A stretch of DNA of 64,000 nt from Planctomycetota bacterium (GTDB taxonomy: Bacteria; Planctomycetota; UBA11346): assembly GCA_003136555.1 (NCBI GenBank), contig PLEW01000036.1, forward strand, positions 6,640-70,639, given 5' to 3'. This document shows positions 7,445 through 52,554 of this stretch, piece after piece (the first letter of the stretch is position 1; each line of letters opens with the position of its first letter). The notes under the pieces were generated by a model that was not told where the DNA came from, searched no databases, and saw only the letters and a list, made by a program, of their open reading frames with translations. The translations under genes and the position numbers were made by a program.

Positions 7445-7838
7445 GGGAAGTGGTCCTGTGGGTGGTCGCGCGGGATGATCCGGCAACCGGTGCATCCAAG
7501 CCAGTCTGCCTGGCTCTGAACCTGGAGGAAGTCCTCGTCCAGGCAGCGGGCGCACAGCGGTGTGTTTGCTATGCCGGACACGTTTCCAATATACTATACG
7601 CGATGACGATGAGGGTCAAGCCATCTTACATGCGCTTCTGCAGGCTGTCGCACCCTCCTGCCCGGTGCGCTCGCCGGTACGGCTCAGGGCGGCTTCGTGT
7701 GCACAGCCCGCTTGCCGCAGCGCGCACCTGGTCGGCACGCAGCGTGCAAGGGAGCGGGTCCCGGTCCTTGACTCGCCCCCCTGTCGGCGAGGTTCTCTGC
7801 CGCACTCCTCCCCTGTCCACCCCGTCCGGCGAGATCCA

Positions 7839-31237: not shown

Positions 31238-31732
31238 CTAAGACGGTACCGCGACCCGCACGTCAGCCGCGGGTAGCAGGATCATGCGCTCGCCCGGCCG
31301 CGTGCTGCGCAGCAGACGCAAGCCGACGCAGAGCATGCGGCATTCCTCGCGCTCCAGCCCGATCGCCAGCTGATCGAAGCCGTTCTCCAGGTATTCGACG
31401 CAGTCGGCGGTGCTCGCACCCATCACCTTGGCATAGCGCTCCAAGCTGTCCAGGCAGGCCTCCACCAGCTCCGGCTCGGTGCCGAAATCGGCGAGCGCGA
31501 TCACCGCGCGGATGGCGCCGCGCAGCGGATCTGGGCGGGGTGGGAGGACCGGTGGACGATGCATCGGTGTCATGGCCATCTCCTGAGCACATCCTGCGCC
31601 AAATGCCGATGGCGCGGCGCGCGGCGCGCTATCGTCACTGTCGGGCCCGGCGAGATCGATCATGCCGGCGGCGATGGCCAAGAGATGCGGGCGCGAACCG
31701 TCCACATGCCTGCACGTATCCTCGGATTTCAC
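31238..31732 (-). CDS. hypothetical protein
   Basis: ORF upstream of the HDOD gene on the same strand. The C-terminal half is protein-like (EPELVEACLDSLERYAKVMGASTADCVEYLENGFDQLAIGLE). True start uncertain; there are internal Met codons. Confidence 0.4.
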   Translation of the reverse strand: MKSEDTCRHVDGSRPHLLAIAAGMIDLAGPDSDDSAPRAAPSAFGAGCAQEMAMTPMHRPPVLPPRPDPLRGAIRAVIALADFGTEPELVEACLDSLERYAKVMGASTADCVEYLENGFDQLAIGLEREECRMLCVGLRLLRSTRPGERMILLPAADVRVAVPS

Positions 31733-32306
31733 AGCGGGAAGGATCGCTGCGCGGCGTGGCCGGCCGGGTGGCGCAGCGTGCCAACGGGATGCATGGGCCT
31801 GATCGCGCGTATACCGGCTTCCCCCGCCTCCGGCTCGATCGTGCTGCGGTCAACCCCAACCAATGTGGTTGGGGCCCCATTTCCTGGCTCTGGTCGGCTG
31901 GCGACCTGCATAGGCATCCCACAGCATCGGGGCGTACTGCAGCGCGTGAGCAGCTGCTTGGACAGGCCTGTGGGGCCGCACGGTGCGGAAGCCGGAGGAA
32001 GCCGCAGCGGGATGGCTGCTCACAGCGCGATCAGCAGCAGGTCGCATGCGGCTTGGGTCATCGCCAGCATGGCGGCGATGAACTCCGTGCCGTCGACCTG
32101 CTCGGGGCGTAGATGCGGCCACCGCTGCTGATCGATCACCTACCGACCGCAGTCGCCGGACGAGCGCATCGCCCGCCCCGCGCACCGCTGGTCGACGAGC
32201 ATGCGCATGGCGACCTGCTCGGGAACGGGGCGCCTAAAGATGGCGATCTGGCAGCGGGTGGCATCGACCAGGCCGCAGAGAGAGCACCGAAGGCACTGCT
32301 CCTGAG

Positions 32307-32738
32307 TTAGGGCGAGACCCCTTCACCTGGTCGGCCGGCAGCATCGCCGTCCGCCGCCATCGGCCCCGGGCGAGCAACCACCGGGCCGGTACGCGGCGCC
32401 GACGACTTGCGGAAGACCTCGGTCAGGGTCCCATGGATGGGCAGCAGCTTGTCCATCCGCGTCCTGGTCATCACCATGCGATTGCGCTCACTGACATGGA
32501 CCAGGTACAACGAGCCGTTGATCCGGCGGAAATCCCGGCACAGGCTGGCCAGGCTGCCGAAGGCGATGCTGGGGAGCTCGACCGCCTCTTCGCAATCGAT
32601 GATCACATGCTGGACCCCGCTATCGATGAACTGGCGGTTCACCTGATCGCGGAAGCCCAGCCAATCATTCTGGTCGAAGTGCCCGGGCAGCTCGATGACG
32701 CACTGCCCATTGACCATCCGGGTGTTCAGCATGGTCAT
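32307..32738 (-). CDS. STAS-domain protein (anti-sigma-factor antagonist-like)
   Basis: SpoIIAA-like layout (VIELPGHFD...HVIIDCEEAVELPSIAFGSLASLCRDF...LYLVHVSERNRMVMTRTRMDKLLPIH). The start overlaps the CheY stop (ATGA). Confidence 0.7.
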   Translation of the reverse strand: MTMLNTRMVNGQCVIELPGHFDQNDWLGFRDQVNRQFIDSGVQHVIIDCEEAVELPSIAFGSLASLCRDFRRINGSLYLVHVSERNRMVMTRTRMDKLLPIHGTLTEVFRKSSAPRTGPVVARPGPMAADGDAAGRPGEGVSP

Positions 32739-33130
32739 ACCGCCCCCGTTTCGGCTGCGCCGAGCGGAAGGCCTTGCGCCGCCTTTTCGACCGCACCGAT
32801 GATGCGATCGGCGTCGAACGGCTTGACGATGAAGTCGCAGATGCCGAGCTCGACGGCGCGGCGCATGGACTCGCGCTGATCGACCGCGGTGACCATGATC
32901 ACCTTCGCAGTGGGGTTGATCTGGCGGATGCCGGCGAGTGCGGCCAGGCCATCGGCATTCGGCATCACGATGTCGAGGGTGGTGATGTCCGGGCGCAGCT
33001 CGCGGTAGCGAGCGATGGCCTCGTTCCCATCCGCGGCCTCGCCGCAGATGCGGTAGCCGAGGGGCTCCAGCGCATCGCGGATGAGCTTGCGCATGAACAG
33101 CGCGTCGTCGACGATGAGAATGCTGATCAT
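32735..33130 (-). CDS. cheY: CheY-like single-domain response regulator
   Basis: MISILIVDDALFMRKLI...DIVMPNADG...VIMVTAVDQ...DFIVKPF. Receiver-domain Asp/Thr/Lys positions are all present. Confidence 0.9.
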   Translation of the reverse strand: MISILIVDDALFMRKLIRDALEPLGYRICGEAADGNEAIARYRELRPDITTLDIVMPNADGLAALAGIRQINPTAKVIMVTAVDQRESMRRAVELGICDFIVKPFDADRIIGAVEKAAQGLPLGAAETGAV

Positions 33131-33441
33131 CCCTGACTCCCCTGGCTTGACGCCTCGTCTGCGGACGGGGCGATGGCGAATTGCAGCGCCCCGAGCTGGC
33201 TGCGCACAGAGCGGTCCCCGGTGAAGGTCAGCGAGCCACCCTGCTTCTTCATCAGCTCGCTGGCACGCAGGATGAAGGCCAGGAAGGCCGGCGACGCCAT
33301 GACCGTGTCAGCGGCGAAGGCCATGGTGATGGCGGTCTTGCCGTTGCGGATCGCGGCGCGCAGATGCGACGCCAGGGCCTCCGCCCGGCTCTGGTCGATG
33401 ACGCCGCTGGCCTTGATGATGACTGCTGTGGAATCTGACAT
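33127..33441 (-). CDS. STAS-domain protein (anti-sigma-factor antagonist-like), second copy
   Basis: MSDSTAVIIKASGVIDQSRAEALASHLRAAIRNGKTAITMAFAADTVMASPAFLAFILRASELMKKQGGSLTFTGDRSVRSQ. Start at ATG 33439..33441 with RBS GGAGAG. ORF-track stop at 33127. Confidence 0.7.
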   Translation of the reverse strand: MSDSTAVIIKASGVIDQSRAEALASHLRAAIRNGKTAITMAFAADTVMASPAFLAFILRASELMKKQGGSLTFTGDRSVRSQLGALQFAIAPSADEASSQGSQG

Positions 33442-33482
33442 GGTTGCTCTCCGAGGAGGTGGTGGGCGCTCAGCGTTCCTGA

Positions 33483-34016
33483 TCACAGCTCGATGCGATT
33501 ATGGCCGAAGTCCTCGACCACGAGGGTGAGATCCTCAGGGGTGAATTCGACCCTCCGCCCCAGCCGTCCGCCGACATGGTGGGCGATGACCGGGATGCGC
33601 GCCGCTGCAAGCGCGTCGGTGACCGAGGCGATGTTGGATGCGCCGATGTCGCGAGTGTAGTCCAGCGCATGGTCGAACATGCGCGCCCCCCCGGCGAATT
33701 TGCAACGCAGGCGGCTGCGCGCTGCGCCATGGGCGGTCAGCGACTCCAGCAGGCAGTCCACCGCATGGTCCGCATACTTCCCCGGCAGCATGCCGCGTGG
33801 CCGGCCCTCGGCATGCGGCAGGAGCACGTGCGCCATGCCCGCCAGGCGGATCTCGGGGTCGTAGATCACCAGCCCGATGCAGCTGCCGAGGACGGACTGC
33901 AGGCGATTGGGAGAACGCGTGAGATGGACCTGGCCGATCAGCACCTTGATGTCCTTGATCTGGCCCTTGCGCACAGCTTCGGTGCTAATCATGGCCGGCT
34001 CCGCGAGTGATGGCAT
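33483..34016 (-). CDS. cheD: chemoreceptor glutamine deamidase CheD
   Basis: CheD core GQVHLTRSPNRLQSVLGSCIGLVIYDP...GMAHVLLP with the catalytic Cys-His arrangement. An alternative start at 33992 sits 4 nt after the cheC stop. Confidence 0.85.
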   Translation of the reverse strand: MPSLAEPAMISTEAVRKGQIKDIKVLIGQVHLTRSPNRLQSVLGSCIGLVIYDPEIRLAGMAHVLLPHAEGRPRGMLPGKYADHAVDCLLESLTAHGAARSRLRCKFAGGARMFDHALDYTRDIGASNIASVTDALAAARIPVIAHHVGGRLGRRVEFTPEDLTLVVEDFGHNRIEL

Positions 34017-34590
34017 GCAGCACTTCCGGCGACGGTAGGAACACCAGGTGGATGGTCGGCCCGGAGCCGATGCAGGCGATGCGCGCCGTCACCACCACCG
34101 CATCGTCGGCGCAGGCGGCGGATTCGATCAGCAGCGCATCCCAGGCCGCGGTGCCGACATCGACCAGGACCACCGGGGCTAAGGGCACGGCGACGATGTC
34201 CATGCGGCTGGCCATGCCATTCATCATCGAGGAGAAGAGGATGTTGGCGGTCTCCTGGAGCATCGAGCGCTCCATCTCGCCGATGCCTCCAGCCTGCTCC
34301 TCGCCGGGCAGTTTCCCGCCGAGGCAGACCACCAGCTGGGTGGCGTCAGCATAGGAGAGCTGCACCGCGGCATTGCCCGGCAGCCCGCCGTTCACCCGCG
34401 AGGCGATGGTGATGGTGGTCGCACCCGCATCCTCGCCTTCCTGGGGGATGAGATCGAGCCGGACTGAAGCGACCGAGCAGACCTCGATGCGGACCTCGCG
34501 GTGGAGCCAGCGGGACAGCATGGAGCCGGCATTGCCGGCCCCATGGCGCGCGCTGGCGGCGAGATCGTCGAGATGGATCTGGCTGATCAT
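33985..34590 (-). CDS. cheC: CheC-family CheY-P phosphatase
   Basis: CheC/CheX/FliY-type repeats (LQETANILFSSMMNGMASRM; ESAACADDAVVVTARIACIGSG). Start adjacent to the cheA stop. Confidence 0.75.
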   Translation of the reverse strand: MISQIHLDDLAASARHGAGNAGSMLSRWLHREVRIEVCSVASVRLDLIPQEGEDAGATTITIASRVNGGLPGNAAVQLSYADATQLVVCLGGKLPGEEQAGGIGEMERSMLQETANILFSSMMNGMASRMDIVAVPLAPVVLVDVGTAAWDALLIESAACADDAVVVTARIACIGSGPTIHLVFLPSPEVLHAITRGAGHD

Positions 34591-34591
34591 G

Positions 34592-37500
34592 TCAGGCTCC
34601 TGCGCTCAGCAGCGGACGCTTCGCGCACGCCAGGTCATGGATGCCATGGATGTCGAGGATCAGCGCGACCCCCCCATCCCCCAGCACGGTGGCGCCGCTC
34701 AATCCGCGCACCCGGTTGAACTGCGCCCCCAGGGGCTTGACCACGATCTCCTCGTCGCCGATCACCTGGTCGACGGCGATGGCGATGGTCTCGCTCCCGC
34801 CCTTGGTGATCACCGCCCGCAGCAGGCCGCCGGCGGCGGCCAGGGGCACGATGCCGACCACGCGCTGGAGGTCGACCAGGCTGATCACCTGGTCGCGCAG
34901 GAAGATGACCCTCCCCTTGCCGTCCACGCTGCGCACCTCACGGCCGTCGATCTCGACGATCTCGCGCACGCAGTCGAGGGGGAAGGCGAAGCGGGCATCG
35001 CCGATCTTCACCAGCAGGGAATCGATCATCGCCAGGGTCAGCGGCAGGGCGATGGTGAAGGTGGCGCCCTTGCCGGGCTCGGAGGCGATGGCGATGGTGC
35101 CCTTGAGCGAGAGCACCTTGCTGCGCACGATGTCCATGCCCACCCCGCGGCCTGAGATGTTGGTGATCGCGGCGGCGGTGGAGAAGCCGGGCAGGAAGAT
35201 GAACTGGTAGATCTCCTCGTTGGTCATGCGATTGGCCGCCTCGGCGGTCACCAGGCCACGCTCGATCGCCTTGCTCCTGATCCTCTCGACCGACAGGCCG
35301 CGCCCATCGTCACGAACCTGGATGCAGATGGTGCTGCCGCGATGGAAGGCCTCGAGGTGCACCATGCCCTGGGGGGCCTTGCCCGCCGCCACCCGTTCCG
35401 CGGGCGTCTCCATGCCGTGATCGATGCCGTTGCGGATGAGATGGGTGAGCGGATCGCCGATCTCATCGATGAGCTTCTTGTCGAGCTCGGTCGAGTCACC
35501 GGAGGTCACCAGCTTGGCGTCCCGACCACGCTCCTTGCACAAGTCGCGCACCAGCCGGTGGAAGCGCTGGAAGAGCGGGCCGATCGGCACCATGCGCGAT
35601 TGCATCACGCTGTGCTGCATGGCGCTGGTATGCCGGTGCAGTTCCAGGGTCGTGTCGCGGGTGCGCCGGATCTCGTCCTGCGCCCGGCGCAGGAGGGAGA
35701 TGCTGGAGAGCTGGCGCGCCGAGGCGGTGCCGCCGCCATCGCCGACTGCCAGCTGCTCGAGCGCCCGGGCATCCACGCCGTCGAGCAGCCGGACCAGCGT
35801 ATCGACCTGCTGGGTCAGCCGGGCCTTGGTGATGGCCAGCTCGCCGGCGGTATTCAGCAGGTGGTCGAGGCGCATGGTATCGACGCGCACCGTGTCGGCA
35901 GCGGCAACGCCATGCCCGGCTGCCACCTTGGCCTCCGGCTGGACGGAGGCATTTGGGCCGCCGGCGCTGCGCGCCGGGGCCTCGCCCGCGGCCAGGGGAT
36001 CGATTGACCAATCGCGCACCAGGTCGCAGGTGATCGCCTCGATGAGCTCGGCGAGCGGCGCGAGCGAGGAGATCACCGCGCACAGCGATAGGGAAGCGCC
36101 GGTGCCCTTCTCGAGATCGCCCCTGGTGGGGCGGGAATGGTGGATGGTCGCCACCTTGCCCAGGTTCTCGAGGATCATGCGGAAGCGCAGATCGGGCAGC
36201 TGCGTATGCGCTGCGAGCACCAACCGCACCTTCCACAGCGGCTGCCCCGTGCAGGCGGCGCGGGCGGCAGAGAGCTCTTGTTCGCTCGGCGACCACAACG
36301 GCAGGCTGGCCTGCTGCGCCGCCGCCTTGGCCAGCTGGCGGGCGCAGGCATCATCGAGGGCGGCGCAATCAGGGGACGACTCCTCGCCGCGCTCGACGCG
36401 ATCAATGCAGGTCTGCAGCGCATCCTTGGTGGCGAACAAGTCGCTCATCACCCCGGCATCGAGGCGCATGCGGCCATCACGGATCGCTGCCAGCAGGCTC
36501 TCGCCTTGGTGCGAGAGGCGGGCCATCTCGTCCAGGCCCATGCTCGCGCTGGCGCCCTTGAGCGAATGCAGATGGCGGAATACGGCGTCGACATGCAGCA
36601 TCTCCTCCGGACTGCCTTCGCAGGCCAGCAGCGACGCATCCAGCTCGGTGAGCGCTTCCCGCGAGGTGCCGATCCACAGGGGCAGGTGCCTGGCCATGTC
36701 CGGCTTGACCGCCAGGCGCTCATGGCGCCTGGATGCCTTAGCGGGATCGCGGCCGATGCGCATCGCCTCGGACGTGCTGCCTGGCCCCGACAGCAGCCAC
36801 GCCTCGCCCGGGGGCACCTCCAAGGCCGCCAGCAGCACGGCCGCATCCCCGGCGCAGAAGCCAAAGACGCCGATGCGCAGCTGGAAATCGCGCAGCGGCG
36901 CCCAGAGATCCTCCGGCCCGGAGACCAGCTGGATGATGCGTCGGATGCCCACGCCCTGGGAGATGGCGTCCATCGCCGCGGTGGCCCCACGGGAGAAATG
37001 CAGCAGGCTGTCGGCCTCGAAGAGCAGCGCGACCGCCTGCTTGCCCTCGCCCATCGCAACCATGGTCTCGCAGATGTCCTCCTCATCGAGCCGGCCATGC
37101 AGCCAGGACGGCGCCTGGCCGAGGTGCTCAGCGACCGGATCGTAGGCACGTGGGGGCAGGCTGGGAAGCTCCGCGGGCAGCGCCGGCTGCGGGAGCACGG
37201 CTGGCGCAGCGGTTGGCGGCCCCACGGGCGCGGCCGGTGCGCCAAGCACCCCTTCGAGGAGGCGGAGCGCCGGCTGGATGTCGACCTGGCTGGTGCAGCT
37301 GCCGGCGACATCCGCCATCAGCGAGCTGACCGTATCAAAGGAGCGGAACAGGGCATCGACCACCAGGGCGGTGAAGGTCACCTTGCCGTGCCGGATCAGA
37401 TCGAGCACGGATTCCATGAGGTGCGTGACCTGGGCGATATCGGTGAGCTTGAGGAAGCCGGCCGCACCCTTGAGGGAATGGGCGGCGCGGAACATCTCGG

Positions 37501-37633
37501 CGATGTCATCGGGACCGATGGCGCGCTGCTCGACCGCCAGCAGCCGGTCATTGAGCGTGGCGATATGCACACCCGCCTCGTCGAGGAAGCCGGTGACCGC
37601 ATCGGAATCGATGCCGAAATCATTGGCAGCCAT
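34592..37633 (-). CDS. cheA: chemotaxis histidine kinase CheA with two Hpt domains, dimerisation, HATPase and C-terminal CheW-like domains (no REC)
   Basis: Hpt boxes HSLKGAAGFLKL and HSLKGASASMGL. HATPase_c G-boxes (NGIDHGMETPAER..., SGRGVGMDIV). C-terminal CheW-like ...ILDIHGIHDL. Confidence 0.9.
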   Translation of the reverse strand: MAANDFGIDSDAVTGFLDEAGVHIATLNDRLLAVEQRAIGPDDIAEMFRAAHSLKGAAGFLKLTDIAQVTHLMESVLDLIRHGKVTFTALVVDALFRSFDTVSSLMADVAGSCTSQVDIQPALRLLEGVLGAPAAPVGPPTAAPAVLPQPALPAELPSLPPRAYDPVAEHLGQAPSWLHGRLDEEDICETMVAMGEGKQAVALLFEADSLLHFSRGATAAMDAISQGVGIRRIIQLVSGPEDLWAPLRDFQLRIGVFGFCAGDAAVLLAALEVPPGEAWLLSGPGSTSEAMRIGRDPAKASRRHERLAVKPDMARHLPLWIGTSREALTELDASLLACEGSPEEMLHVDAVFRHLHSLKGASASMGLDEMARLSHQGESLLAAIRDGRMRLDAGVMSDLFATKDALQTCIDRVERGEESSPDCAALDDACARQLAKAAAQQASLPLWSPSEQELSAARAACTGQPLWKVRLVLAAHTQLPDLRFRMILENLGKVATIHHSRPTRGDLEKGTGASLSLCAVISSLAPLAELIEAITCDLVRDWSIDPLAAGEAPARSAGGPNASVQPEAKVAAGHGVAAADTVRVDTMRLDHLLNTAGELAITKARLTQQVDTLVRLLDGVDARALEQLAVGDGGGTASARQLSSISLLRRAQDEIRRTRDTTLELHRHTSAMQHSVMQSRMVPIGPLFQRFHRLVRDLCKERGRDAKLVTSGDSTELDKKLIDEIGDPLTHLIRNGIDHGMETPAERVAAGKAPQGMVHLEAFHRGSTICIQVRDDGRGLSVERIRSKAIERGLVTAEAANRMTNEEIYQFIFLPGFSTAAAITNISGRGVGMDIVRSKVLSLKGTIAIASEPGKGATFTIALPLTLAMIDSLLVKIGDARFAFPLDCVREIVEIDGREVRSVDGKGRVIFLRDQVISLVDLQRVVGIVPLAAAGGLLRAVITKGGSETIAIAVDQVIGDEEIVVKPLGAQFNRVRGLSGATVLGDGGVALILDIHGIHDLACAKRPLLSAGA

Positions 37634-37635
37634 GA

Positions 37636-38499
37636 TCAGCGCTTCCTGTAGATGGTGGGACGCACGTAGGAGAATTCGCTGCTGCGATCGTTGAGGGTCT
37701 CTGCACCGCCCAGGATCAGCCAGCCACCCGATCTCAGCCGGGCGCTGACATGGCGCATCACCGTGGCCTTGCTCTCGCCGTCGAAGTAGATGAGCACGTT
37801 GCGCAGCAGGATCAGGTCGTAGGGCTTGCCCGAGGATGCCTGCTGGAGGTTGTGCTGGCGGAAGCTGACCAGGCGGCGCAGCTGCTCCTGCACCTGGTGC
37901 CCGCTGTTGTCGGGCAGCTTGGTGAAGTACTGCTTCAGGCAGCGCGGCGTCAGCTTCTGGAGCGCATAGGCGGAGTAGATGCCCCTGGCCGCGCGCTCGA
38001 GCACCTGGGTGTTGATGTCGGTGGCATCGATGTGCACGCCATGGGCGCTGCCAGAGAGGCCCGCGGTCAGGGCGATGGCCAGGGAGTAGGCCTCCTCACC
38101 GGTCGAGCTGGCGGCGCTCCAGGCGCGGAAATCGGCAGAGGCCGGCACCTGCTGCCGCCAGTGCGGCATGATGGTGCCGAGGAGGAAATCCCAGTGCTGC
38201 TTGTGGCGGAAGAAGAACGTCTCATTGGTGGTCAGGGCCTCGAGGCAGGCCTGGAACTCGTCCTGGTGGCCGGGTGCCGTGACATAGGCGTGGTAGGCGC
38301 TGAAGGAGGGCAGCTGGAGCGCCTCGACCCGCTTGCGCAACCGGCTCTGCACCAGGTTCTGCTTGGCATCCGCCAAGCGGATGCCGGTCTCGCGGTACAT
38401 CATCTCCTGGAACAGCTTCATGTCGCTATCGCTGAAGTGCAGCTCAGCGGGAGTCGTCAGAGACGAGGGGCTGATGCGGGTCGGCATGAGGGTGGTCAT
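37636..38499 (-). CDS. cheR: chemotaxis protein methyltransferase CheR
   Basis: CheR N-terminal and SAM-MTase domains (NETFFFRHKQHWDFL..., SAASSTGEEAYSLAIAL, LRNVLIYFD). Start at 38497..38499 inside ORF 37636..38628. Confidence 0.9.
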   Translation of the reverse strand: MTTLMPTRISPSSLTTPAELHFSDSDMKLFQEMMYRETGIRLADAKQNLVQSRLRKRVEALQLPSFSAYHAYVTAPGHQDEFQACLEALTTNETFFFRHKQHWDFLLGTIMPHWRQQVPASADFRAWSAASSTGEEAYSLAIALTAGLSGSAHGVHIDATDINTQVLERAARGIYSAYALQKLTPRCLKQYFTKLPDNSGHQVQEQLRRLVSFRQHNLQQASSGKPYDLILLRNVLIYFDGESKATVMRHVSARLRSGGWLILGGAETLNDRSSEFSYVRPTIYRKR

Positions 38500-38523
38500 T
38501 GGTCGCTCGTCCTGCCTATCCCT

Positions 38524-38540
38524 TTGCACCCGATGTGCCA
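38524..38540 (-). promoter_or_regulatory. sigma-54 (-24/-12) promoter consensus TGGCAC-ATCGG-GTGCAA on the minus strand, about 25-40 bp upstream of cheR
   Basis: Reverse complement of 38524..38540 is TGGCACATCGGGTGCAA. The GG and GC dinucleotides are spaced exactly as in the TGGCACG-N4-TTGCW consensus. An NtrC-type activator gene lies in the same block. Confidence 0.5.
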
Positions 38541-38570
38541 AGCCGCGGTCCCTACTCTGTACTGTCGTGC

Positions 38571-38654
38571 CAGGGAGTTGCATCGACAGCCCCGGGGGTC
38601 GACCCAAGAGTTGTGCCGCTGGCCCCAAGTGTTGGGACCAGGGCCCGATGTTGG
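38571..38654. repeat. array of about 21-bp spaced imperfect direct repeats (CCCAAGAGTTG / CCCAAGTGTTG / CCCGATGTTGG, plus GGGAGTTGCA) in the MCP-cheR intergenic region
   Basis: Read directly: units begin near 38603, 38624 and 38644, about 80-130 bp upstream of the sigma-54 consensus. Candidate activator binding sites. Confidence 0.4.
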
Positions 38655-38906
38655 GGTGCCCTGCGCACCACCGGGCCCTTCAGGGGGCCGCCGATCTGAT
38701 CACCGGGTCGGTGCGGAGGCGAGGCCGAGGCCACCGCTCTCGCCGCCAAGCCAGGCGCGGCCACGCTTCCCCTCCCGGCAGGCCGTGGTCGCAACGACGC
38801 CGACCGGTGCGACCAGGGGCATGGGCCACCCTGATCACACCGGTCGATGGGACAGCTGAAGCGGTGACGACACCCCTGGAGGCTCGGCTCCTGCCAGGGG
38901 CATCGC

Positions 38907-40682
38907 TCACTCGTGGTAGAGCGCTTTGCCGGCCGTCTCGAGCTCGCCGTCCTCCTCCTGGGCCAGCGACTGGCGGGACAAGGTGGCACGCGCGGGCGCA
39001 TGCCCCGCCGCGCCGTTGCGCTGGCCATTGCGGGTCGCCGACACCACACCGTTCCCCTGCCGGGTCAGGCCGGCTCGCGGTTCGGGCTTGGCCGCCGGGC
39101 GGCGCGCCGCCGCCAGCGCCGGACGGCGCTCGCGCTCGCTATCCTCGGCCAGGTGGAAGCGCGCGACCAGCTCCTGCAGGCGCTGGGCCTGCGCCGAGAG
39201 CTCCTCGGCGCTGGCGGCCATCTCCTCGGCCGAGGCCGAATTCTCCTCGGTGATCGCCGAGATGCCTTCCGCGCCCTTGCTCAGCTCCTTGGCGGTCACC
39301 GCCTGCTGCTCGGTGCTGGCGTTGATGCTCGCCATCCCCTGGCTGGTGCTGGTGATGCCCTCGATGATGGCATGCAGGGACTTGCCCACCTCATGCGACA
39401 GGGTGGCGCCATCCGTCACCCGCTTGCCCGATTCGTCGATCAGCTGCGCGATCTCCTGGGCGGCGGTGCTGCTGCGCTCGGCCAGCTTGCGCACCTCGTC
39501 CGCCACCACCGCGAAGCCCAAACCGTGCTCCCCCGCGCTGGCCGCTTCGATGGCGGCATTCAGGGCCAGGAGGTTGGTCTGGTTGGCGATCTGGTTGATC
39601 ACCCCGATGATCTTGGCGATCTGCGACGAGCTGTCGTTGATCGCCTTCATGCCGTCTATCGAGCGCTTGACCGTGGTGCTGCCGGCCTCGGCGGTGGCGC
39701 TGGTGCCCTGGGCGACGCGGTTCGCCTCGCCGGCCTTGGCCGCGACAAGCTCGATGCTCTTGGAGAGCTCCTGCACCGCCGCGCTGATCTCCTCCACCGA
39801 GCTGGCCTGGGTCTGCGCGCCGCTGCTGATGTTCTGCGCTGAGGCCGAGAGCTCCTCGCCCGAGGCAGCAGTCTGGTCGGCCGCCGCGCGGATCTCCGCC
39901 ATCACCCCATGCAGGGTCTCGACGGTGGTGTTGAGGGCGGCGGCCATCTCGCCGATCTCATCCTTGCCAACGCTGGGGATGCGCACGGTCAAATCGCCCT
40001 CGGCGACCTCCTGCATGGCCGATGCCATGCTGCGGATCGGACGCGAGATGCCGCGGGCGATCAGCCATGCGGTCACCAGGCCGATGACCACCGCCGCCAG
40101 GGTGGCGGCGCTGAGCAGCCACAGCGCGCGGGAGGCCACCTGGTCGGCGACCAGGCCCGCCTTCGCCGCCCCATCGTTGTTGATCTCGATGATGCGGTTG
40201 AGCGCCTTGTCGGCGCGGTAATAGGTGTCGCGCATGGCGCCGCCCATCAGCAAGGCGTGCGCCTCGTCCTTCTTGCCGATCTCAAGGAACTGCTTGCCGA
40301 ACTCCTGGTAGGCCTTCCAGTCGATCACGAACTGCTTGTAGATGGTGTTCTCCTCCTCGGTCTGCGGCAGCGGCTCGTAGATCTTCTGCCCGGCGGAGAA
40401 GACCGCGAGGGCCTTGACCATCTCGCCCTCATACTTCTCCATCGTCGCGGCATCGCTGGCGGTCAGGTGGGCATACTGCTGGCGGCGGTAGCTGCCGGCG
40501 CCCAGGCGCATCTCCTCGATCGAGTAGACCGAGGGCAGCCAGCGGTCCTTGATCACCGTGGTCTGCTCGGTGACCCGGTGCAGCTGGGTGATGGCGAACG
40601 CAGCCACCCCGATCAGCAGGGAGAGGACCAGGCCGAAGCCGAGCAGGAGCTTGGTCTGGATGCGGAGATTGGCGAGATTCAT
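38907..40682 (-). CDS. methyl-accepting chemotaxis protein (4HB-type periplasmic sensor, HAMP, MCP signalling domain)
   Basis: Two TM segments flank a helical periplasmic domain. HAMP ([25 protein letters not shown]). Highly conserved signalling hairpin [38 protein letters not shown]. Confidence 0.9.
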
Positions 40683-40741
40683 GGCTGTTCCTTCGTTGTC
40701 GTTGGTTGTTCGGTGAATGATGGTGGTGGAAGCGGTAGTGC

Positions 40742-41251
40742 TCAGACCGGCGCAGCGACGCTCTGGAGCTGGGCCTGCTCGCTGGTGGCGAGGACCTTCT
40801 CGATGTCGAGCAGCAGCTGCAGGTGGTCGTCGAGCCTGGCCACGCCGATGAGGTATTCACCAGCGATGCAGGCGATGGTGTCAGGCGGCGGCTGGATATT
40901 GGCCTTGGGGATCTTCATCACCCGCGAGACCGCATCGACGATCATCCCGACGATGCCGCCGTCCATGCGCGTGACCACGATGCGGGTGTGCTCATCAAGG
41001 CCGCAGCTGCCCATGCCGAAGCGCTTGCGCAGATCGACCACCGGGATGACGGTGCCGCGCAGGTTGATGATTCCCTCGATGTAGCCGGGCATCTGCGGCA
41101 CCTTGGTGATGCCTTCGACGAGGATGATCTCCTTGACCTTGATGATCTCGATGGCGTATTCCTCGGCTCCGAGGTTGAATGACACCACCTGCAGGTAGTC
41201 CTGCATCTTGAGGGTCATGCGCGATTGCTCGACGGTGGATACCTGGGTCAT
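40742..41251 (-). CDS. cheW: chemotaxis coupling protein CheW
   Basis: 169-aa CheW fold ([21 protein letters not shown]...[18 protein letters not shown]...MIVDAVSRV). Start at 41249..41251 inside ORF 40742..41839. Confidence 0.9.
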
Positions 41252-41286
41252 GACGTCTGCTCCTGTGATTGATCGTTGGGTGATGC

Positions 41287-43302
41287 CTAGGGGATGAAGT
41301 TCTTGACCATCAGCACGACATTGCCGCGCTGATTGAATTCGACGCGCGTCATGCGCGCCTGGACCATGGCGAGGCCGAAGCCGCCGCAGCGCTTGCCTGC
41401 CCGCTCGCGCAGCGCGGAGACGTGCAGCGGATCGAAGGAATCGAACAGGCGGTGGGTGTCGAAGCCGCTGCCTTCGTCGGCGATCTTGACCATCACCCGG
41501 TCGGGCATGATCAGGGTCGAGACGCGCACCGTGAGTTCGGGCGCGAAGCGGTTGCCCCACTCGATGCCGTTCATCGCCATCTCGCGGATCGACCACACCA
41601 GGTCGTCGAGCACCCCGGACGGCAGCGGCTGGCGCGCCAGGGCCTGGAGGTAGCGGGTCAGCAGTTCGACCGCCGCAGGCGAGGAGGAGATGACGAAGTC
41701 GAACCATTCGTTGCCGAGATTGTCGAACGCCACCAGGTCGCGGTCGGGATCGAACTGCAGGGCGTAGCGGAACGCGCGCTCGAACTCGCGCACATCGACC
41801 GGCTTGGTGAGGATGCCGGCGGGATTGAGATCGAAGCACTGTCGCGCCGCGCTGTCGATCGCATTGCCGGTCACCACCAGCACCGGGAGGTGGGGATGCA
41901 GGCGGCGGATCGAGCGGAAGAGGTCATGCCCGAGGGCATCAGGCAGGCCGAGATCGAGGATGACCAGGTCCGGCTGCTGCTCTGCCAGCGCCAACCGCGC
42001 GGCGGCGGCGGTCGAGCACGAGGTGGCGGTGATGCCAATTTTCGTCAGCACATGGCCGATCAGGGTGCAGATGATCGGGTCATCATCGATATGCAGGACG
42101 CGCTTGCCCGCGACGATGACGTGACGCTCGGGCGGCAGCGCCGTGCGCGGACGCAGCGCCAAGAGCGAAATGTCGTCGGCGAAGGCATGCAGCGGCACGG
42201 CGCTGGTGGCCATGTCGATGGCGCCGGTGAGCACACCGGTCAGATCCGTGCTCGCCTGGCCCAGCTGGGTCAGGCACCGCTGGCCGTGGGTGCAGGCGAT
42301 GGGATAGAGATCCTCGCTCAGGCCATCGGTGTAGGCGAGCAGCACCTCGCCATCAGCGAGCGTGGTCGAGCGCATCTCGCGTTCACCATCGGCGGCGACG
42401 CCCAGGGCGCTGCCTTCCGCCTCGAGCTTGCGGAAGCCGGTGGTGGCAGAGCACACCAACGGGGCGGGATGCCCAGCGGAGGCATAGACCAGCTCGCGGC
42501 TGGCTTCGTCATAGCGGGCGCAGAAGGCAGTGGCGTAGTACTCGCCCGGGAACAGCTCGCGCATCACGCTGTCGGCGCGCGCAAGGATCTCCGCCACCGG
42601 CACTCCCGCCTCGAGCGAGCTGAACCAGGTCCGCAGGGCGATCCCGCCGAAGGCGGCAGGGGTGCCATGCCCGCTGACGTCGGCGACGAACAGCAGCACC
42701 TGGCCCTGGCCATCGGCGCGCACGTCCATGTAGTCGCCGCCCAGGCCCGCCTGCGGCAGATGGCGGAGCGCCACATCGGTGTGGCGCAGCCAGGAGAAAT
42801 CGGAGGGGAAGATGCGCTGGTGCAGCCTGCGGGCGAACATGCGCTCGCGCGTCATCGCCGCGCGTAGGTTCTTCTCGGTATCGAGGCTCATCTCCATGCG
42901 ACGGATGGTGATGCGATCGGAGCGGCTGGCGGAGATCTGGTCTACCAGCAACCGCAGCTCATCGAGCTTGATCGGCTTGCGCATCAGGCCGACTGCGCCC
43001 TCCTCGACCGCCTGGCGCAGATCGCAGATCGCGCTGTGCGCGGTCATCAGCAGCACGTCGACGCCCGGGAAGAGGTTGCGCACTTTATGCAGCAGCTGCG
43101 TCCCACTGCCCCCCGGCATGCAGATGTCGGTGATCACCAGGTCGATGGCCCCGTCCGTGCGGCTGATCGCTGCGGTGGCAGCATCCACCGAGCTGGTGCC
43201 GATGGCCTGGTGACCGCAGCGGGCCAGGAAGGGCTCGATGGTATCGAGGATCAGGGGTTCATCATCGACAACTAGGATGCGCATGATGCGGTGCTCCGAC
43301 AT
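41287..43302 (-). CDS. four-domain partner-switching protein: REC - PP2C (SpoIIE/RsbU-like phosphatase) - REC - RsbW-like HATPase (anti-sigma-factor-type Ser kinase)
   Basis: REC1 MRILVVDDEPLIL...DICMPGGSG. PP2C motifs GGDYMDV, LFVADVSGHGTPAAFG, LLAYTDGLSE. REC2 VLHIDDDPIICTL...VILDLGLPD...VLVVTG. C-terminal GHKL-type EMAMNGIEWGN...ADEGSGFD. Start placed at 43300..43302. Confidence 0.85.
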   Translation of the reverse strand: MSEHRIMRILVVDDEPLILDTIEPFLARCGHQAIGTSSVDAATAAISRTDGAIDLVITDICMPGGSGTQLLHKVRNLFPGVDVLLMTAHSAICDLRQAVEEGAVGLMRKPIKLDELRLLVDQISASRSDRITIRRMEMSLDTEKNLRAAMTRERMFARRLHQRIFPSDFSWLRHTDVALRHLPQAGLGGDYMDVRADGQGQVLLFVADVSGHGTPAAFGGIALRTWFSSLEAGVPVAEILARADSVMRELFPGEYYATAFCARYDEASRELVYASAGHPAPLVCSATTGFRKLEAEGSALGVAADGEREMRSTTLADGEVLLAYTDGLSEDLYPIACTHGQRCLTQLGQASTDLTGVLTGAIDMATSAVPLHAFADDISLLALRPRTALPPERHVIVAGKRVLHIDDDPIICTLIGHVLTKIGITATSCSTAAAARLALAEQQPDLVILDLGLPDALGHDLFRSIRRLHPHLPVLVVTGNAIDSAARQCFDLNPAGILTKPVDVREFERAFRYALQFDPDRDLVAFDNLGNEWFDFVISSSPAAVELLTRYLQALARQPLPSGVLDDLVWSIREMAMNGIEWGNRFAPELTVRVSTLIMPDRVMVKIADEGSGFDTHRLFDSFDPLHVSALRERAGKRCGGFGLAMVQARMTRVEFNQRGNVVLMVKNFIP

Positions 43303-43614
43303 CCCTGCATTGCGTCGGCTGTGCCAGAACCGGGTGGAATCCCAGCGGTTGTGCTGCCAAGCCTTTGCGTCATCCAGGTGGCATCGCGCGTGGTGGCGAA
43401 CACCAACCCCTGGGGTCAGCGGCCCAGGGGTTGGGGTAGCGGCGGGGTGCAGCGACAGCTGCGGGAATGAGGGCGAAACGCGCGCACCCACAGACGCCTG
43501 ATGCGGCCTGCAGGGCGCGGAAAGGGGGGCGTAGACGAGGGTTGAGGACGCGCTGATCGGTACCAGAGCGCAGCAGGGCCAGGGGGCGCGCACCCGCGCT
43601 GCCCCGCGCAGGCA

Positions 43615-45240
43615 TCACGCTGGCGACGGCGCTTCCGGCAGCAGCAGGCGGAACGATGAGCCGGCGCCGGGGTGCGAGTCGAGCAGCAGATGACCGTGAT
43701 GCGCCACCATGCATCCGACCACGGTGGCCAGCCCCAGGCCGCTCCCCTGCCCGGGCGCTTTGGTGGTGAAGAAGGGCTCGAAGATGCGGTCCTGGATGGC
43801 CTCGGGGATGCCGATGCCGTCATCCGACACGCTGATGGCGGCGAAAATGCCCTGGATCTCCTGGGCGCAGATGCGGCAGCGATGGCCTGTGACCGTCTCG
43901 CGCGACACCCCGATGCGCACCCGCCCACCGGCCCGCAGCGCATCGCGGGCATTGATGCAGAGGTTGAGCAGGGCGTTGAAGAGCTGCTCGCGGCTGCCGC
44001 TCACGCACGGACCCGGCTGCTCGAGCGCGAGCTCCAGGGTCTTGCCATCGCCGATAGTGCAGCGCAGCAGGGACTCCAGGTCGGCGACCATCGGCGAGAG
44101 GCAGATGGCCGTCATCGCCGGCTGCCCATGGCGGGCGAAGGTGAGTAGATCGCGGACCAGCGCCGCCGCCGTGGTCGATGAGCGCTCGATGCAGGAGAGC
44201 CGATGGCTGGTCGCGGCATCGCCGCGGCAGACCTGCTGCACCAGTGAGAGATTGGCGAGGATCACCTGCAGGTGGTTGTTGAAATCATGCGCCAACCCGC
44301 CGGCGAGGCGCCCCAGCGCTTCCAGCTTCTCGCTCTGGTCGAGACGTTGGCGCTGGGCGAATGCATCGGTGATGTCCCACACCAGGCCGATCACGCGCTG
44401 GCTCGCGTCGGGAGCCCCGCTCTGGCGGCCGCGGATGCGGATGCGCCGGCGCACGCCGTGATGGGTCCACCAGGCATCGATCTCGATGGTCTGGCTGCCT
44501 GAGAATCCCTGCGACCAGGCGGCGATGATGGCGGGGCGCTCCTCGGCCGGGAATCCCGCCATCATCTCCTGCCATCCCATGACTGCCGAGTCGTGTTCAA
44601 GACCCAGGATCGCCGCGGCCTCATGACCGAAGGAGATGGCTGAGCCGGGGCCATCGATCTGCCAGGTGCCCATGCCGGCGGCCGCCAGCGCCAGATCGAG
44701 GCGTGCCTGGCGATCCAACGCCGCCCCCTCCGCCAGGTGGCGCAAGGCGCTCTCATCGACCGCCTGGCGCGCCAGGCGGTCGTTCGCGGTGCGCAGCGCG
44801 GCGGTCAGCTGGGCGACCGACAGGTGGACGGCGACCCGTGCCAGCAGCTCACCGACGATGACCGGCTTGGCGATGACATCGCTGGCGCCTACTGCAAACG
44901 ATCTGATGCGCTCCTCGGCATCCTGGCTGGCGCTGAGGAACAGCACCGGGATGCCGGCAGTGTGGGGGTCGTCGCGCAGGCGGCGGCAGGTCTCGATGCC
45001 ATCCATCTCCGGCATGCGGATATCGAGCAGGATGAGGTCCGGCCGGCGCGCGGTGACCGAACGCAGGGCATAGGCGCCTCCTGGTGCCTGCCGTACCGTC
45101 AGTCCGTGTGCGCCCAGGATCGCGCCGAGGACCTGGAGGTTCTCCGGCACGTCATCGACGATCAGCACTTCGCCGCTCAGCATCGGGGTACTGGCGGACG
45201 GTTCGTTGCTGGCAGCTTGAGGCATGGACGTCCAAGGCAT
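43615..45240 (-). CDS. hybrid histidine kinase REC-PAS-HisKA-HATPase (receiver at the N-terminus)
   Basis: [14 protein letters not shown]...[11 protein letters not shown]...VLFLSAS. PAS. H-box [13 protein letters not shown]-boxes [11 protein letters not shown] and [11 protein letters not shown]. Exact start ambiguous; Met candidates at 45240, 45225 and 45183. Confidence 0.85.
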
Positions 45241-45381
45241 GGACCAGCCAGTGCGAACGCCATGCCAGGCGAGGGCGCGCACCGCTTGGCCGTCCGCCAG
45301 GCACTTACGCCCATGCCCTGCAGTGAGCCACCCCAAACATCGGGGTTGCCCACCACCTCTTGGGGCGCCACCGGCCGCCGC

Positions 45382-46772
<1,391 letters not shown>

Positions 46773-46776
<4 letters not shown>

Positions 46777-47555
46777 GTGCTCTCCTGCTCGGCGATGCGA
46801 TGGTGCAGACGCACGGTCACGGTGGTGCCCGTGCCCGGCTGGCTGGCGATATCGAGCTGGCCGCTGCATTGGGTCAGCACCCCGCGGGCGGTGGCCAACC
46901 CGAGCCCGACGCCGCGATCGGGCCCCTTGGTGGTGAAGAAGGGCTCCCCGGCTTTGGCCAGGGTGGGGGCATCCATGCCGATGCCGTTATCGCTCACCCG
47001 CACGCTGACCGGATCGCTCGGCAGCACCCCCCCGTCGACGACGATGGAGATGCGTCCGCGTCCGGTCCCGGCCCGGGCGATGCAGGCATCCCCGGCGTTC
47101 GAGAGCAGGATCTGCACCACCTCCTGGATGCCGAAGGGATTGGCGCGCACACGTGCGCGCCCACCTTGGGCCGAGATCTCCAGGTCGATGCCGGCCGCCT
47201 GCAGGCGGGTGCCCATCAGGCGCACCGCCGCCCTGACCGCGGTCATCACCTCGACCGTGACCATGTCCAGCCGCGCACGCTCGTCGGCGAAGCCGCGCAC
47301 GCTCTGGATCAGGTCGTCGATGCGATCGGCCTCGGCGATGATGCGCCGCATTTTGGCCTTGATCTCCGCCTGCGAGATGTCCCAGCCCTCCTCCAGGCCG
47401 ATGAGGATGCCTTCGGCGAAGCCGCGGATGCCGCCCAGGGGCTGGTTGATCTCGTGGGCCATGCCGCCGGCCATGTCGGCCAGGCCCTTGAGCCGGTGCT
47501 GCTGCATGCGGCTGATCATCGCCGCGTCATCGTTATATCCGGGAACGGTGGTCAT
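46773..47555 (-). CDS. soluble histidine kinase (HisKA-HATPase only); probable cognate kinase of the NtrC-like regulator
   Basis: H-box MAHEINQPLGGI. N-box LLSNAGDA. G-boxes DNGIGMD and GVGLGL. ATGA overlaps at both ends. Confidence 0.85.
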
Positions 47556-49570
47556 TGGGGTCGGCCCTCGAGGAGTGTACCCATCAGCTGGGAGAGCTGC
47601 CGGATGCGCACCGGCTTCTCGATGAAGGCCGCCAGCCCATCCTGGCGCAGCGCGTCGATGTTCTCGCCGGCGGTATGCCCCGACATGAGCACGATGAGCG
47701 CGCCGGGGTCCGCCCGCCTGATCGCCCTGAAGACGCCCGCGCCGCTCTGCTTGGGCATGATCAGATCGATCAGGCCGATGGCGAAGCGCGGCTGGGTCTG
47801 CTGCCAGGCGGCGATGGCGGCATCGGGGTCGGCGACGGTGGTGACCTCCCAGCCGAGATGGCGCAGACCATCGGCGAGCACCTCGCGCACGGTGGCCTGG
47901 TCATCCAGCAGCAGCACGCGGCCGGTACGGTGCTGCATGGCGGTAGTGGCAACGCTCACCGGCGTGCTCGCCGCGGGCGCCGCGGAGCTGCCCAGATACA
48001 GGGAGACGGTGGTGCCGCGGCCGGCCGCCGAATCGAGCGACAGATAGCCGCCATGGGCGACCACGCAGCCCAGCACGGCCGAGAGCCCAAGGCCCGTCCC
48101 CTTGCCCTCCGGCTTGGTGGTGAAGAACGGCTCGAAGATGCGGCCCTGGATCGACTCGGGGATGCCGATGCCGGTGTCGGCGACCGTCAGGACGGCGAAG
48201 TCGCCGCTGAAGGCCCGGCGCGAGACCTGGCAGAAGGCCTGCTCCACCGCCCGCCGTTCGAGGCTCAGCGACAGGCGCCCACCGTCGGGCATCGCATCGC
48301 GGGCATTGATGCAGAGGTTCAGGATCGCGTTCTCGAGCTGCCCGGCATTGCCCGAGACGACGATCGGCCCCGCGGGGATGGCGGCGGTGAGGGTGATCGC
48401 CGTCCCGAGCGAGCGCGAGGCCATCTGCACGGTCTGGCGCAGCAGCTGGCAGAGGTCGATGGTTGAGCGCTCGAGATCGCGACGCTTGGCGAATGTCAGC
48501 AGGTCGCGGATGAGGATGGTGGAGGCTTCGGCGGCCTTGCTGATGTTGTCCAGGTGGGCGGCGGCCTGCGGCGAGCCGGCGCCATCCAGGTGCAGGATGT
48601 CGACCTCGGCGGTGATGATGGCGAGCTGGTTGTTGAAGTCGTGGGCCACCCCACCGGCCAGCAGTCCCAGGGCCTCCATGCGTTCGCTCTGGATCAGGCG
48701 ATCGCGCAGCTGGTGCTCCTCGGTGATGTCCCAGATCACCCCGGCCATCTGCACCGCACCCCCCCCCGCGCGCGGGGGCAGCGGCCGGCCACGCAGACGG
48801 ATGCGGGTGCGCGCAGGGCCGTCCCCGCCTGCCGCAGCGGCGACTGGCGGAGTCCACCAGCCCTCGAGGTCGAAGCTCCCGCGGTTGCGCAGCGCACGTT
48901 CGAAGCGCAGGGCGATGCCCTCCTGCTCGGCCTGCGGGAAGGTCTGGATGATATCAGACCAGGCGAGCTGATGCTCCGCGGCCAGACCGAGGATGGCCCG
49001 GGCCCGCTCGTCGCAGCGGAAGGCGGCGCTGACCGGGTCGATCTCCCAGGCGCCCAGGGTAGCCGCTGCGAGCACCAGATCGAGGCGGGCGAGACGCTCG
49101 GCGGCGACCGTCTCGGCATCCCCGCGCCGGTTGGTCTCGGCCAGCACCTGGTCGGAGAGGCGGGCATTGGCCTGATCGAGCGCCTGGCGGGTGCGCCCGA
49201 GGGCGAGGTGGGTGGTGACCCGAGCGAGGACCTCCTCGGCCTGGAAGGGCTTGGAGATGAAGTCCTCGCCGCCGACGCGGAAGCTCTCGATGCGGTCGGC
49301 GGCGGCGTCGCTGGCGCTGAGGAACAGTACCGGGATGGTGGCGCTGGCGGGATCGAGCCTGAGCCGGCGGCAGGTCTCGAAGCCATCCAGCTCAGGCATC
49401 TGCACATCCAGGAGGATGAGGTCCGGGCGACGAGCCTGGACCGAGCGCAGCGCCATCGTCCCGCTGGAGGCGACCCGCACCTTCAGCCCATGGTCACGCA
49501 GCAGGTCGCTGAGCACGCGCAGGTTCTCCGGCGTGTCGTCGACTAGCAGGACTTCGCCGTCGCTGCTCAT
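47552..49570 (-). CDS. hybrid histidine kinase REC-PAS-HisKA-HATPase-REC
   Basis: N-terminal [14 protein letters not shown]...[12 protein letters not shown]-box [13 protein letters not shown]-boxes DTGIGIPE and [10 protein letters not shown]-terminal [13 protein letters not shown]...GLIDLIMP. Start at 49568..49570 with RBS GGAGGGGAG. Confidence 0.9.
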
Positions 49571-52095: not shown

Positions 52096-52554
52096 CCCGC
52101 TCCTGCTGGCAAACGGCAGTCGCGGCGGCCCGGGTTGCCGGTCTGCCCACGCACCAGTCCCGGGTCAGCAACGACCTGGCACACCCCGACCACGGACATG
52201 GCGAGCAGGACGGCACAGCGGCGACCTTGGAGCGAGGACATGGCGGGTGATCCGAGCGCGGCAGGCACGGATACCATGAGTCTAACCACAAAAAATGGGG
52301 TTTGTAAAGGCGGAGTTCGCGGACACCGCCCGTCCGGACTACGGGACCTACCCTGCGCTCAGCTGATCAGCGACTGCGCCCGCCCGCCCATTGTCACCAC
52401 CCCCCTATGCGACTACCTATCCGTCTAGCACAAGGGCATGTTATGGCCGGGGCGTGGTGCCTCCGACAGTCTCGATGTGGCGTTGCACGGGTCGGTCCAG
52501 GAGCGCCTGGTGCTGGTGGCCCTCTACAGGGACCGGCAGGCGCTCCGGTTGACC

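Follow-up and report, generated by a model that had tools for sequence, protein, structure and literature searches.

What turns on the chemosensory genes of an uncultured planctomycete? The question is raised by a stretch of 64,000 nucleotides from a Planctomycetota bacterium (GTDB lineage Bacteria; Planctomycetota; UBA11346; assembly GCA_003136555.1, contig PLEW01000036.1, positions 6,640 to 70,639 of the forward strand), which we call the window and whose GC content is 68%. Its minus strand carries a co-directional block in which sensor kinases and an activator of the NtrC family (45382..46776) are followed by a REC-histidine-kinase gene, a REC-PP2C gene, cheW, mcp and a run of genes from cheR to STAS. 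A motif of the sigma-54 -24/-12 type, P_cheR, precedes cheR. Based on the evidence set out below, we propose that P_cheR is the sigma-54 promoter of the cheR–STAS operon, that it is equipped with an enhancer of dyad-symmetric sites and that it is one of three units under the activator encoded by the cluster itself. From the sequences compared here we would give this reading a probability of about 0.78.

A promoter and dyad arrangement found three times

P_cheR (TGGCACATCGGGTGCAA, 38540..38524, minus strand) is a predicted -24/-12 promoter in which GG and GC stand exactly 10 nt apart, the spacing of the sigma-54 consensus. Compared with TGGCAC-N5-TTGCW, TGGCACATCGGGTGCA has a single mismatch, G for T at -14. 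The motif is co-oriented with cheR and lies in the 407 bp that separate the mcp stop (38907) from the cheR ATG (38499), with its -12 C 27 nt before that ATG; transcription is predicted to start near 38514-38512. An earlier annotation made from the letters of the window, the sequence-only reading, had picked out this motif, and its place, strand and spacing are confirmed. A scan of 38400-39000 returned no sigma-70-like promoter and no U-tract terminator, and zero RNA families were matched in an Rfam scan of 30000-53000. A second TGGCAC, at 38571, was discarded as a promoter, its -12 GC being missing.

What lies upstream of P_cheR? A repeat search finds a 21-nt direct repeat (38603-38623 and 38624-38644, spacing 21, identity 71%). 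Each copy holds one dyad, CCCAAGAGTTGTG with one mismatch and CCCAAGTGTTGGG, a perfect CCCAA-N3-TTGGG, and on their symmetry the repeats are better read as sites of the CACCCCAA-N3-TTGGGGTG kind than as plain direct repeats. The perfect dyad (dyad 2, 38624..38636, 18.0 bits) is centred 90 nt upstream of the T of TGG, and the proximal one (dyad 3, 38603..38615, CACAACTCTTGGG on the minus strand, 12.0 bits) at -69, 21 bp from dyad 2. A distal and weak dyad (dyad 1, 38643..38655, CCCAACATCGGGC on the minus strand, two mismatches, centre about -110) sits 19-20 bp from the neighbouring copy and is without counterpart in relatives. Where the sequence-only reading had seen three or four direct repeats about 21 bp apart, the spacing survives, together with two good copies and a weak one, but the fourth copy does not: the stretch near 38575-38590 (CCAGGGAGTTGCA) has four mismatches, is out of phase and was rejected. 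The predicted cheR enhancer would consist of two, possibly three, dyads, 20-21 bp apart on one helix face and some 95-135 bp ahead of the point where transcription is predicted to begin.

A composite of this kind, in which two dyads 20-21 bp apart accompany TGGCAY-N7-GCA, precedes each of three genes of the block, namely cheR, the REC-PP2C gene and the REC-histidine-kinase gene. The predicted promoter of the REC-PP2C gene, P_pp2c (TGGCACAGCCGACGCAA, 43326..43310, minus strand), is the second-best match in the window to a position weight matrix (PWM) of the promoter, and 28 nt separate its -12 C from the downstream ATG at 43284, the gene start given by independent gene calls. Its dyad pair (43402..43435) comprises CCCAACCCCTGGG (43435..43423) and CCCAGGGGTTGGT (43414..43402), centred at -103 and -82, 21 bp apart. 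Before the REC-histidine-kinase gene stands P_rechk, likewise predicted (TGGCATGGCGTTCGCAC, 45267..45251, minus strand, 14.7 bits), with its -12 C 28 nt from the ATG at 45225; were another ATG, at 45240, the start codon, it would roughly coincide with +1 of P_rechk. The dyads of this third unit (45332..45364), CCCAAGAGGTGGT (45364..45352, 16.6 bits) and CCCGATGTTTGGG (45344..45332, 16.4 bits), are 20 bp apart and begin 18 nt past the stop codon of the activator gene. P_pp2c and P_rechk have two mismatches each to the sigma-54 consensus, with GG and GC intact, and their predicted starts of transcription are near 43300 and 45241. The P_rechk unit is new relative to the sequence-only reading, as is a lone dyad upstream of the kinase/activator operon that is described below.

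The combination is not a random one. We defined a composite as a promoter PWM match of at least 14 bits with two dyads of at least 11 bits each, 19-23 bp apart and 50-125 nt upstream; the window holds three, and 300 dinucleotide-preserving shuffles of it hold none. The dyad pattern is enriched in its own right, at 5 occurrences against 1.18 expected, and PWM dyad matches number 11 against 1.8 +/- 1.3. All four window matches to TGGCAY-N7-GCA fall on the minus strand inside the block. Each of its three intergenic gaps has one, 27-28 nt from the ATG downstream; the fourth (40012-40027) lies inside mcp without dyads and was treated as chance. When PWMs built from the sites of relatives only are run over the whole window on both strands, the three promoters rank 1st, 2nd and 5th, P_cheR being the top match at 18.9 bits, and six of the nine best matches of the relatives-only dyad PWM are the six sites of the three regions.

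Conservation in related loci

Is the arrangement kept where the genes are kept? Orthologous loci were collected through CheR (L007-L017) and through REC-PP2C homologs and their contigs (L018-L026). The order activator, (REC-kinase), PP2C, cheW, mcp and cheR through STAS is preserved at 42-76% protein identity. Every relative with an intergenic gap upstream of the PP2C gene (9/9) has TGGCAC-N7-GC(A) there. The sequence-only reading had listed P_pp2c as a weaker candidate; the candidate stands, and on this count it is the best conserved of the set rather than the weaker. The -12 C is 24-32 nt before the annotated ATG in 8/9 of these relatives; in L024 the annotated PP2C start is only 2 nt past it and looks mis-called. 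TGGCA(C/T)-N7-GCA recurs before cheR in L007, L009, L021 and L024, and P_rechk has counterparts in L021, L023 and, weakly, L009.

The dyads hold their distance from the promoter. Before the PP2C gene they are found at -101 to -104 and -81 to -82 in L009, L018, L019, L021, L022 and L024; L007 has the proximal dyad only (-81), and in L020 the pair is at -78/-57. Offsets of the dyad centres are likewise fixed before cheR (about -90/-69) and the REC-kinase gene (about -91/-71), in surrounding sequence that is unalignable. In a MAFFT alignment of PP2C upstream regions, taken from relatives with 42-73% protein identity, the only invariant columns are CCCCAA..CTG, AC.CCA....TTGG.G, TGGCAC...GC and ATG, with TGGCAC...GC invariant across the seven aligned orthologous regions; in the corresponding cheR alignment TTGGCA...GCA is invariant. 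Across the regulatory regions 57-110 nt separate the dyad centres from the T of TGG downstream of them, and pairs are 20-21 bp apart (one 22, one 24) in 15/18 of them. To these is added the cheW unit of L020, a composite from outside the training set, in which two dyads 20 bp apart and TGGCACGCGCTGTGCAA precede cheW. In L026 ('bacterium M21', AT-rich, 42-45% identity), CACCCCCAAAAGTTGGGGTTAG and a canonical TGGCTTGGGCATTGCAT are found where the activator operon and the PP2C gene diverge.

The sites also keep company with the activator. An activator ortholog is adjacent wherever the region is visible (L007, L009, L018, L019, L021, L022, L023 and L026), and in two related che clusters without an adjacent activator, L025 and L013, a PWM scan found neither composite dyads nor promoters. 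These conserved footprints lend support to the core of the sequence-only reading, which had taken the region for a sigma-54 promoter with enhancer-type sites and the cluster's own NtrC-family activator for the likely binder. Placement of the cassette appears to differ from genome to genome: promoter and enhancer stand at different gene boundaries, before cheR, before cheW or at neither.

A search of orthologous cheR upstream regions for TGGCAC-N5-TTGCW with at most two mismatches found nothing and was too strict, for variants with three mismatches, TGGCAT...GCGCA, keep GG-N10-GC. In the AT-rich clade of L011 and L012 a PWM scan found zero composites. These two loci (about 1860-1955 and 9840-9945) hold candidate promoters TGGAACACTTATTGTAA and TGGTACGAAGTTTGTAT, which have TTGT for TTGC at -12, each about 70-75 nt downstream of a common TTGGTGCCAA motif; the motifs may be a lineage variant of promoter and operator. 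In L019 the gene of the activator ortholog (1033-2368) is broken in two, with the AAA+ part (1033-2247) in one frame and the helix-turn-helix (HTH) part (2237-2368) in another. This reads as a frameshift or an assembly error, and the dyads and promoter downstream are still intact.

The activator, its predicted targets and rival explanations

What would read the dyads? The proposed binder, an NtrC-family enhancer-binding protein (45382..46776, minus strand), has a REC domain, an AAA+ sigma-54 interaction domain and a Fis-type HTH. Pfam (Response_reg 7e-30, Sigma54_activat 1e-62, AAA_lid_14 7e-23, HTH_8 4e-5) agrees with the family to which the sequence-only reading had assigned it. Walker A (GETGSGKD), Walker B (LFLDEIGD) and the sigma-54 contact loop (GSFTGA, residues about 222-227) can all be recognized. 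The protein falls below the NCBIfam equivalog cut-offs for AtoC (397 vs 714), NtrC (383 vs 559), NtrX (333 vs 600) and ZraR (306 vs 760); by these scores it is a member of the NtrC family that should not be filed as NtrC, AtoC, ZraR or NtrX. Its best solved structural relatives are NtrC1 and NtrC4 of Aquifex. The HTH, RWNRRAAAK.L.ISYEALRWRI.K, is strongly conserved among the activator orthologs, which is consistent with a conserved operator.

Sensor genes (46773..52095, minus strand) lie upstream in the same operon as the activator. By Pfam they encode a 5TM-PAS hybrid kinase (49567-52095), a REC-REC kinase (47552 to about 49580) and a soluble HisKA kinase whose gene overlaps the activator start (46773-47555); their synteny is kept in L018, L022 and L023. 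Upstream of this kinase/activator operon there is a sigma-70-like promoter, TTTACA-N18-TAGACT (52279..52308, minus strand), whose spacer is filled by the lone dyad (52302..52284, 16.1 bits). The same layout forms a conserved island in L018 (5440-5475). By analogy with NtrC, which represses its own expression at glnAp1 and glnL, the arrangement suggests that the activator represses its own operon through this dyad.

A number of points weigh against the reading that we prefer, and the first of them is statistical. The promoter motif with one mismatch occurs twice in the window against 2.26 expected from shuffles and is not enriched; with two mismatches it shows no excess (25 matches against 31 expected), and TGGCAY-N7-GCA gives 4 against 2.8. 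The matrix and chance checks cut both ways: P_cheR is the best promoter match window-wide with PWMs from relatives only, but its motif count alone is that of chance. Stand-alone motif enrichment was rejected as evidence, and what supports our reading is genomic context together with conservation. PWM scans of the relatives are partly circular, as the same loci supplied training sites. In L008, L010, L013 and L025, moreover, the mcp–cheR gap and the cheR promoter are both absent; because of these loci we regard P_cheR as a dispensable, lineage-variable internal promoter. With respect to the protein, the window activator and that of L007 have GSFTGA in place of the canonical GAFTGA found in L018, L019, L022, L023, L011 and L026, and we assume that the variant loop is functional. 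No rpoN was seen among the window genes scanned with Pfam, a scan that did not take in every open reading frame (ORF), and that the genome has it is our assumption, based on the integrity of the activator and on literature about the phylum. Finally, it is only from linkage and co-occurrence that we infer binding of the dyads by the local activator.

Could the site before cheR be a chance match in GC-rich DNA next to incidental repeats, with cheR read from upstream or from a sigma-70-type promoter? The motif counts, which equal chance expectation, and the relatives that do without a separate cheR promoter are what such an explanation would predict. We nevertheless hold it to be highly improbable, given the three composites against none in 300 shuffles and a sequence and position kept in about 10 genomes amid diverged flanks; nor was a sigma-70-like site found in the gap, or an Rfam family in 30000-53000. 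An exact-composite scan of a metagenome contig collection adds no support: it returned nine matches, about the chance estimate, with zero che clusters and zero contigs from the window's own population among them.

A second alternative accepts the dyads and promoters as genuine and has them read by another NtrC-family activator encoded elsewhere, such as a nitrogen regulator, the local activator having other targets. What speaks for it, and adds to the points weighing on our reading, is L034, an unrelated contig of 68% GC in which tandem CCCAAACCTTGGG and CCCAAGATCTGGG dyads 21 bp apart and a perfect TGGCACGCCCATTGCT (composite 3915-4026) precede glnB-glnA (genes 4033-5917). Because the L034 dyads precede glnB-glnA, similar sites are evidently read by other NtrC-family proteins. 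The dyad of the window also resembles the enteric NtrC site, GCACCA-N3-TGGTGC. Planctomycetes encode many NtrC-family activators (PMC12316311). Against this, the dyads accompany the local activator gene over nine loci, down to 45% activator identity (L026), and are missing in L025 and L013. One dyad pair starts 18 nt after the activator stop, a lone dyad lies in the activator-operon promoter in two genomes and the activator HTH is conserved in step with the dyad site. On balance a foreign reader of the sites seems decidedly unlikely. A similar composite was also observed in L030 (946-1069), before a gene for a patatin-like protein of 1236 aa.

Which genes would the local activator control? Independent gene calls on identical metagenome contigs (ENA, JGI) match the gene boundaries, and Pfam agrees with the annotations made from sequence (cheR, cheA, cheC, cheD, STAS, cheY, NtrC-like activator, kinases, REC-PP2C). 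An identical CheR protein occurs on contigs of 66-88 kb from many ENA and JGI metagenomes, and samples such as ENA ERZ19995421 and JGI 3300029907 contain this contig. The closest genome records are Planctomycetota metagenome-assembled genomes, and other window genes carry the planctomycete-specific domains PSCyt1, PSD1 and DUF1501. All three units are on the minus strand. Unit 1 is the gene of a REC-HisKA-HATPase histidine kinase (43615..45225). Unit 2 (38907..43284) comprises the REC-PP2C-REC-HATPase_c_2 gene (41287-43284; Response_reg twice, SpoIIE 1.6e-34, HATPase_c_2 2e-14), cheW (40742-41251) and mcp (38907-40682). Unit 3 (32307..38499) consists of tightly packed or overlapping genes in the order cheR (37636-38499), cheA, a weakly matched cheC-like gene, cheD, STAS, cheY (32735-33130) and STAS, the two STAS genes being at 33127-33486 and 32307-32738 (STAS 6e-11, STAS_2 2e-5). 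Two strong RNA hairpins (38906-38867 and 38846-38801, minus strand) follow the mcp stop directly, with a minimum free energy of -77.4 kcal/mol (z = -3.26; 0/200 shuffles as stable) and no U-tract; L007 and L009 have similar hairpins after mcp. They are probably a transcript boundary or a stabiliser before P_cheR, and terminator-like hairpins at the end of mcp would give cheR a reason to have a promoter of its own.

What is observed are motifs that combine in a non-random way, are conserved and occur together with the activator gene. On this basis we propose a model in which binding, sigma-54 dependence, transcription starts and phosphotransfer partners are predictions. The upstream kinases would phosphorylate the receiver domain of the activator. 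The activator would then oligomerise on the tandem dyads, loop to the sigma-54 holoenzyme at -24/-12 and open the promoter by ATP hydrolysis. Three promoters would be opened in this way: that of the REC-kinase gene, a possible feedback; that of the PP2C/anti-sigma-kinase-like gene with cheW and mcp; and that of cheR through STAS. The chemosensory and partner-switching pathway would be made only while the phosphorelay is active, and the same activator would repress its own kinase/activator operon through the lone dyad. The sequence-only reading had called the arrangement feed-forward. That term is wrong; a linear cascade from kinases to activator to three sigma-54 units, with likely feedback, fits better.

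What would follow from the model? In its widest form it says that a dedicated activator with a new site, CACCCCAA-N3-TTGGGGTG, works in two modes, turning three serial sigma-54 promoters on and its own sigma-70-type promoter off, and so gates a chemosensory-plus-partner-switch pathway in Planctomycetota and 'bacterium M21'. We hold this wider claim at even odds. If true, Planctomycetota, a poorly studied phylum, would gain a first activator regulon with a defined operator, and a multi-kinase phosphorelay would here license a Che-like system with a sigma factor as its probable target. Transcriptional control in uncultured Planctomycetota is almost uncharted, and in our literature search neither the regulon of this cluster nor its operator turned up. 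The candidate regulon offers one activator, an operator of 13-19 bp, three promoters and a candidate autorepression site, kept in about 10 genomes, and its layered signalling design is relevant to Che systems that do not serve motility. It also illustrates that a statistically plain sigma-54 motif can be validated through context and phylogenetic footprinting.

Three further sites of the window stand outside the three units. Tandem dyads 21 bp apart (31852-31891; PWM 14.3 and 7.2) occur in the interval that separates the last STAS gene from a small ORF (31238-31573), which has a good AGGAG ribosome-binding site and is followed by an HDOD gene, a neighbour not conserved in relatives; the pair may belong to a fourth target or be the remnant of one. 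Downstream of it, TGGCACGCTGCGCCACC near 31783 has the wrong GG-GC spacing and was not taken as a promoter. The top single dyad of the window, GACCCCAAGGGTTGGGATG (57905-57923, 19.3 bits), lies within a DUF3299-like gene, with neither a partner dyad nor a promoter nearby. The third-best promoter-PWM match, CGGCACGCAGCGTGCAA (7733-7749, plus strand), is located between divergent genes (7556-7840), with an ATG about 90 nt downstream and without CCCAA dyads, and may be a sigma-54 promoter of another regulon.

Relation to known systems

How does the candidate regulon compare with systems already described? Sigma-54 promoters and regulons have been surveyed computationally as a feature of Planctomycetota, and for Planctomycetia the genes reported to have such promoters include those of motility, of histidine kinases and of CheY-like receivers (PMC12316311). 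Sigma-54 together with an enhancer-binding protein over motility-related genes is the pattern of the FleQ, FlrA/FlrC, FlbD and FlgR flagellar hierarchies. The present locus differs from these in that flagellar genes are absent and the activator, being specific to one cluster, is not a master regulator. The association of che genes with a PP2C/anti-sigma-kinase/STAS module suggests a sigma-factor output, not motility.

Another system to compare is Che3 of Myxococcus xanthus, in which an NtrC-like activator with its own kinase lies beside a chemosensory cluster that controls gene expression (PMC3147164). There CrdS phosphorylates the NtrC homolog CrdA, whose gene adjoins che3, and CheA3 dephosphorylates it (PMC3147164). 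The present locus likewise has an activator and its cognate small kinase next to a che cluster, and the activator might be mainly a chemosensory output under CheA, as CrdA is, within a positive autoregulatory loop. Such a role would be compatible with the sigma-54 control that we propose. Two observations make it unlikely as the main one. Che3 is without CheY and CrdA is its output, whereas this cluster retains CheY and the REC-PP2C/STAS partner-switch module as possible outputs. In L018 and L019, moreover, the activator–PP2C pair and its promoter persist without cheA and cheR, so that CheA is not required for the activator's role. The predicted activator sites, unlike the Che3 arrangement, precede the che genes themselves, so that control would run at least partly in the opposite direction.

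The REC-PP2C protein brings to mind CrsR, which has a PP2C phosphatase domain. With the Shewanella oneidensis Che1 proteins CrsR/CrsA and the Pseudomonas proteins HsbR/HsbA (PMC9855816, PMC6482189) the likeness is one of domain architecture only: by domain match, the locus has a response regulator with PP2C and HATPase_c_2, plus a STAS antagonist, and an anti-sigma domain is mentioned for CrsR (PMC9855816). Unlike CrsR and HsbR, the protein here has a second receiver domain, and there are two STAS proteins. In the literature we found neither sigma-54 nor activator control described for the Che1 CrsR/CrsA or HsbR/HsbA clusters.

NtrC acting at glnAp2 is the established enteric paradigm of enhancer-dependent transcription, and our candidate resembles it in several parts. 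Both have an activator of receiver, AAA+ and Fis-type HTH, dyads about 100-140 bp upstream of a -24/-12 element on one helical face, a cognate kinase gene that adjoins the activator and an extra site overlapping a sigma-70 promoter, which in the paradigm serves autorepression. The dyads are of similar flavour, CACCCCAA-N3-TTGGGGTG here versus GCACCA-N3-TGGTGC there. The locus departs from the paradigm in that its predicted targets are signalling genes instead of genes for nitrogen assimilation, that three serial promoters lie in one co-directional cluster and that several hybrid kinases provide input. The mechanism would be a textbook one, and the gain is a new instance, not a new principle. 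On the computational evidence, the candidate regulon is well supported as a member of the classical NtrC-type enhancer/sigma-54 design, an ordinary kind of bacterial control.

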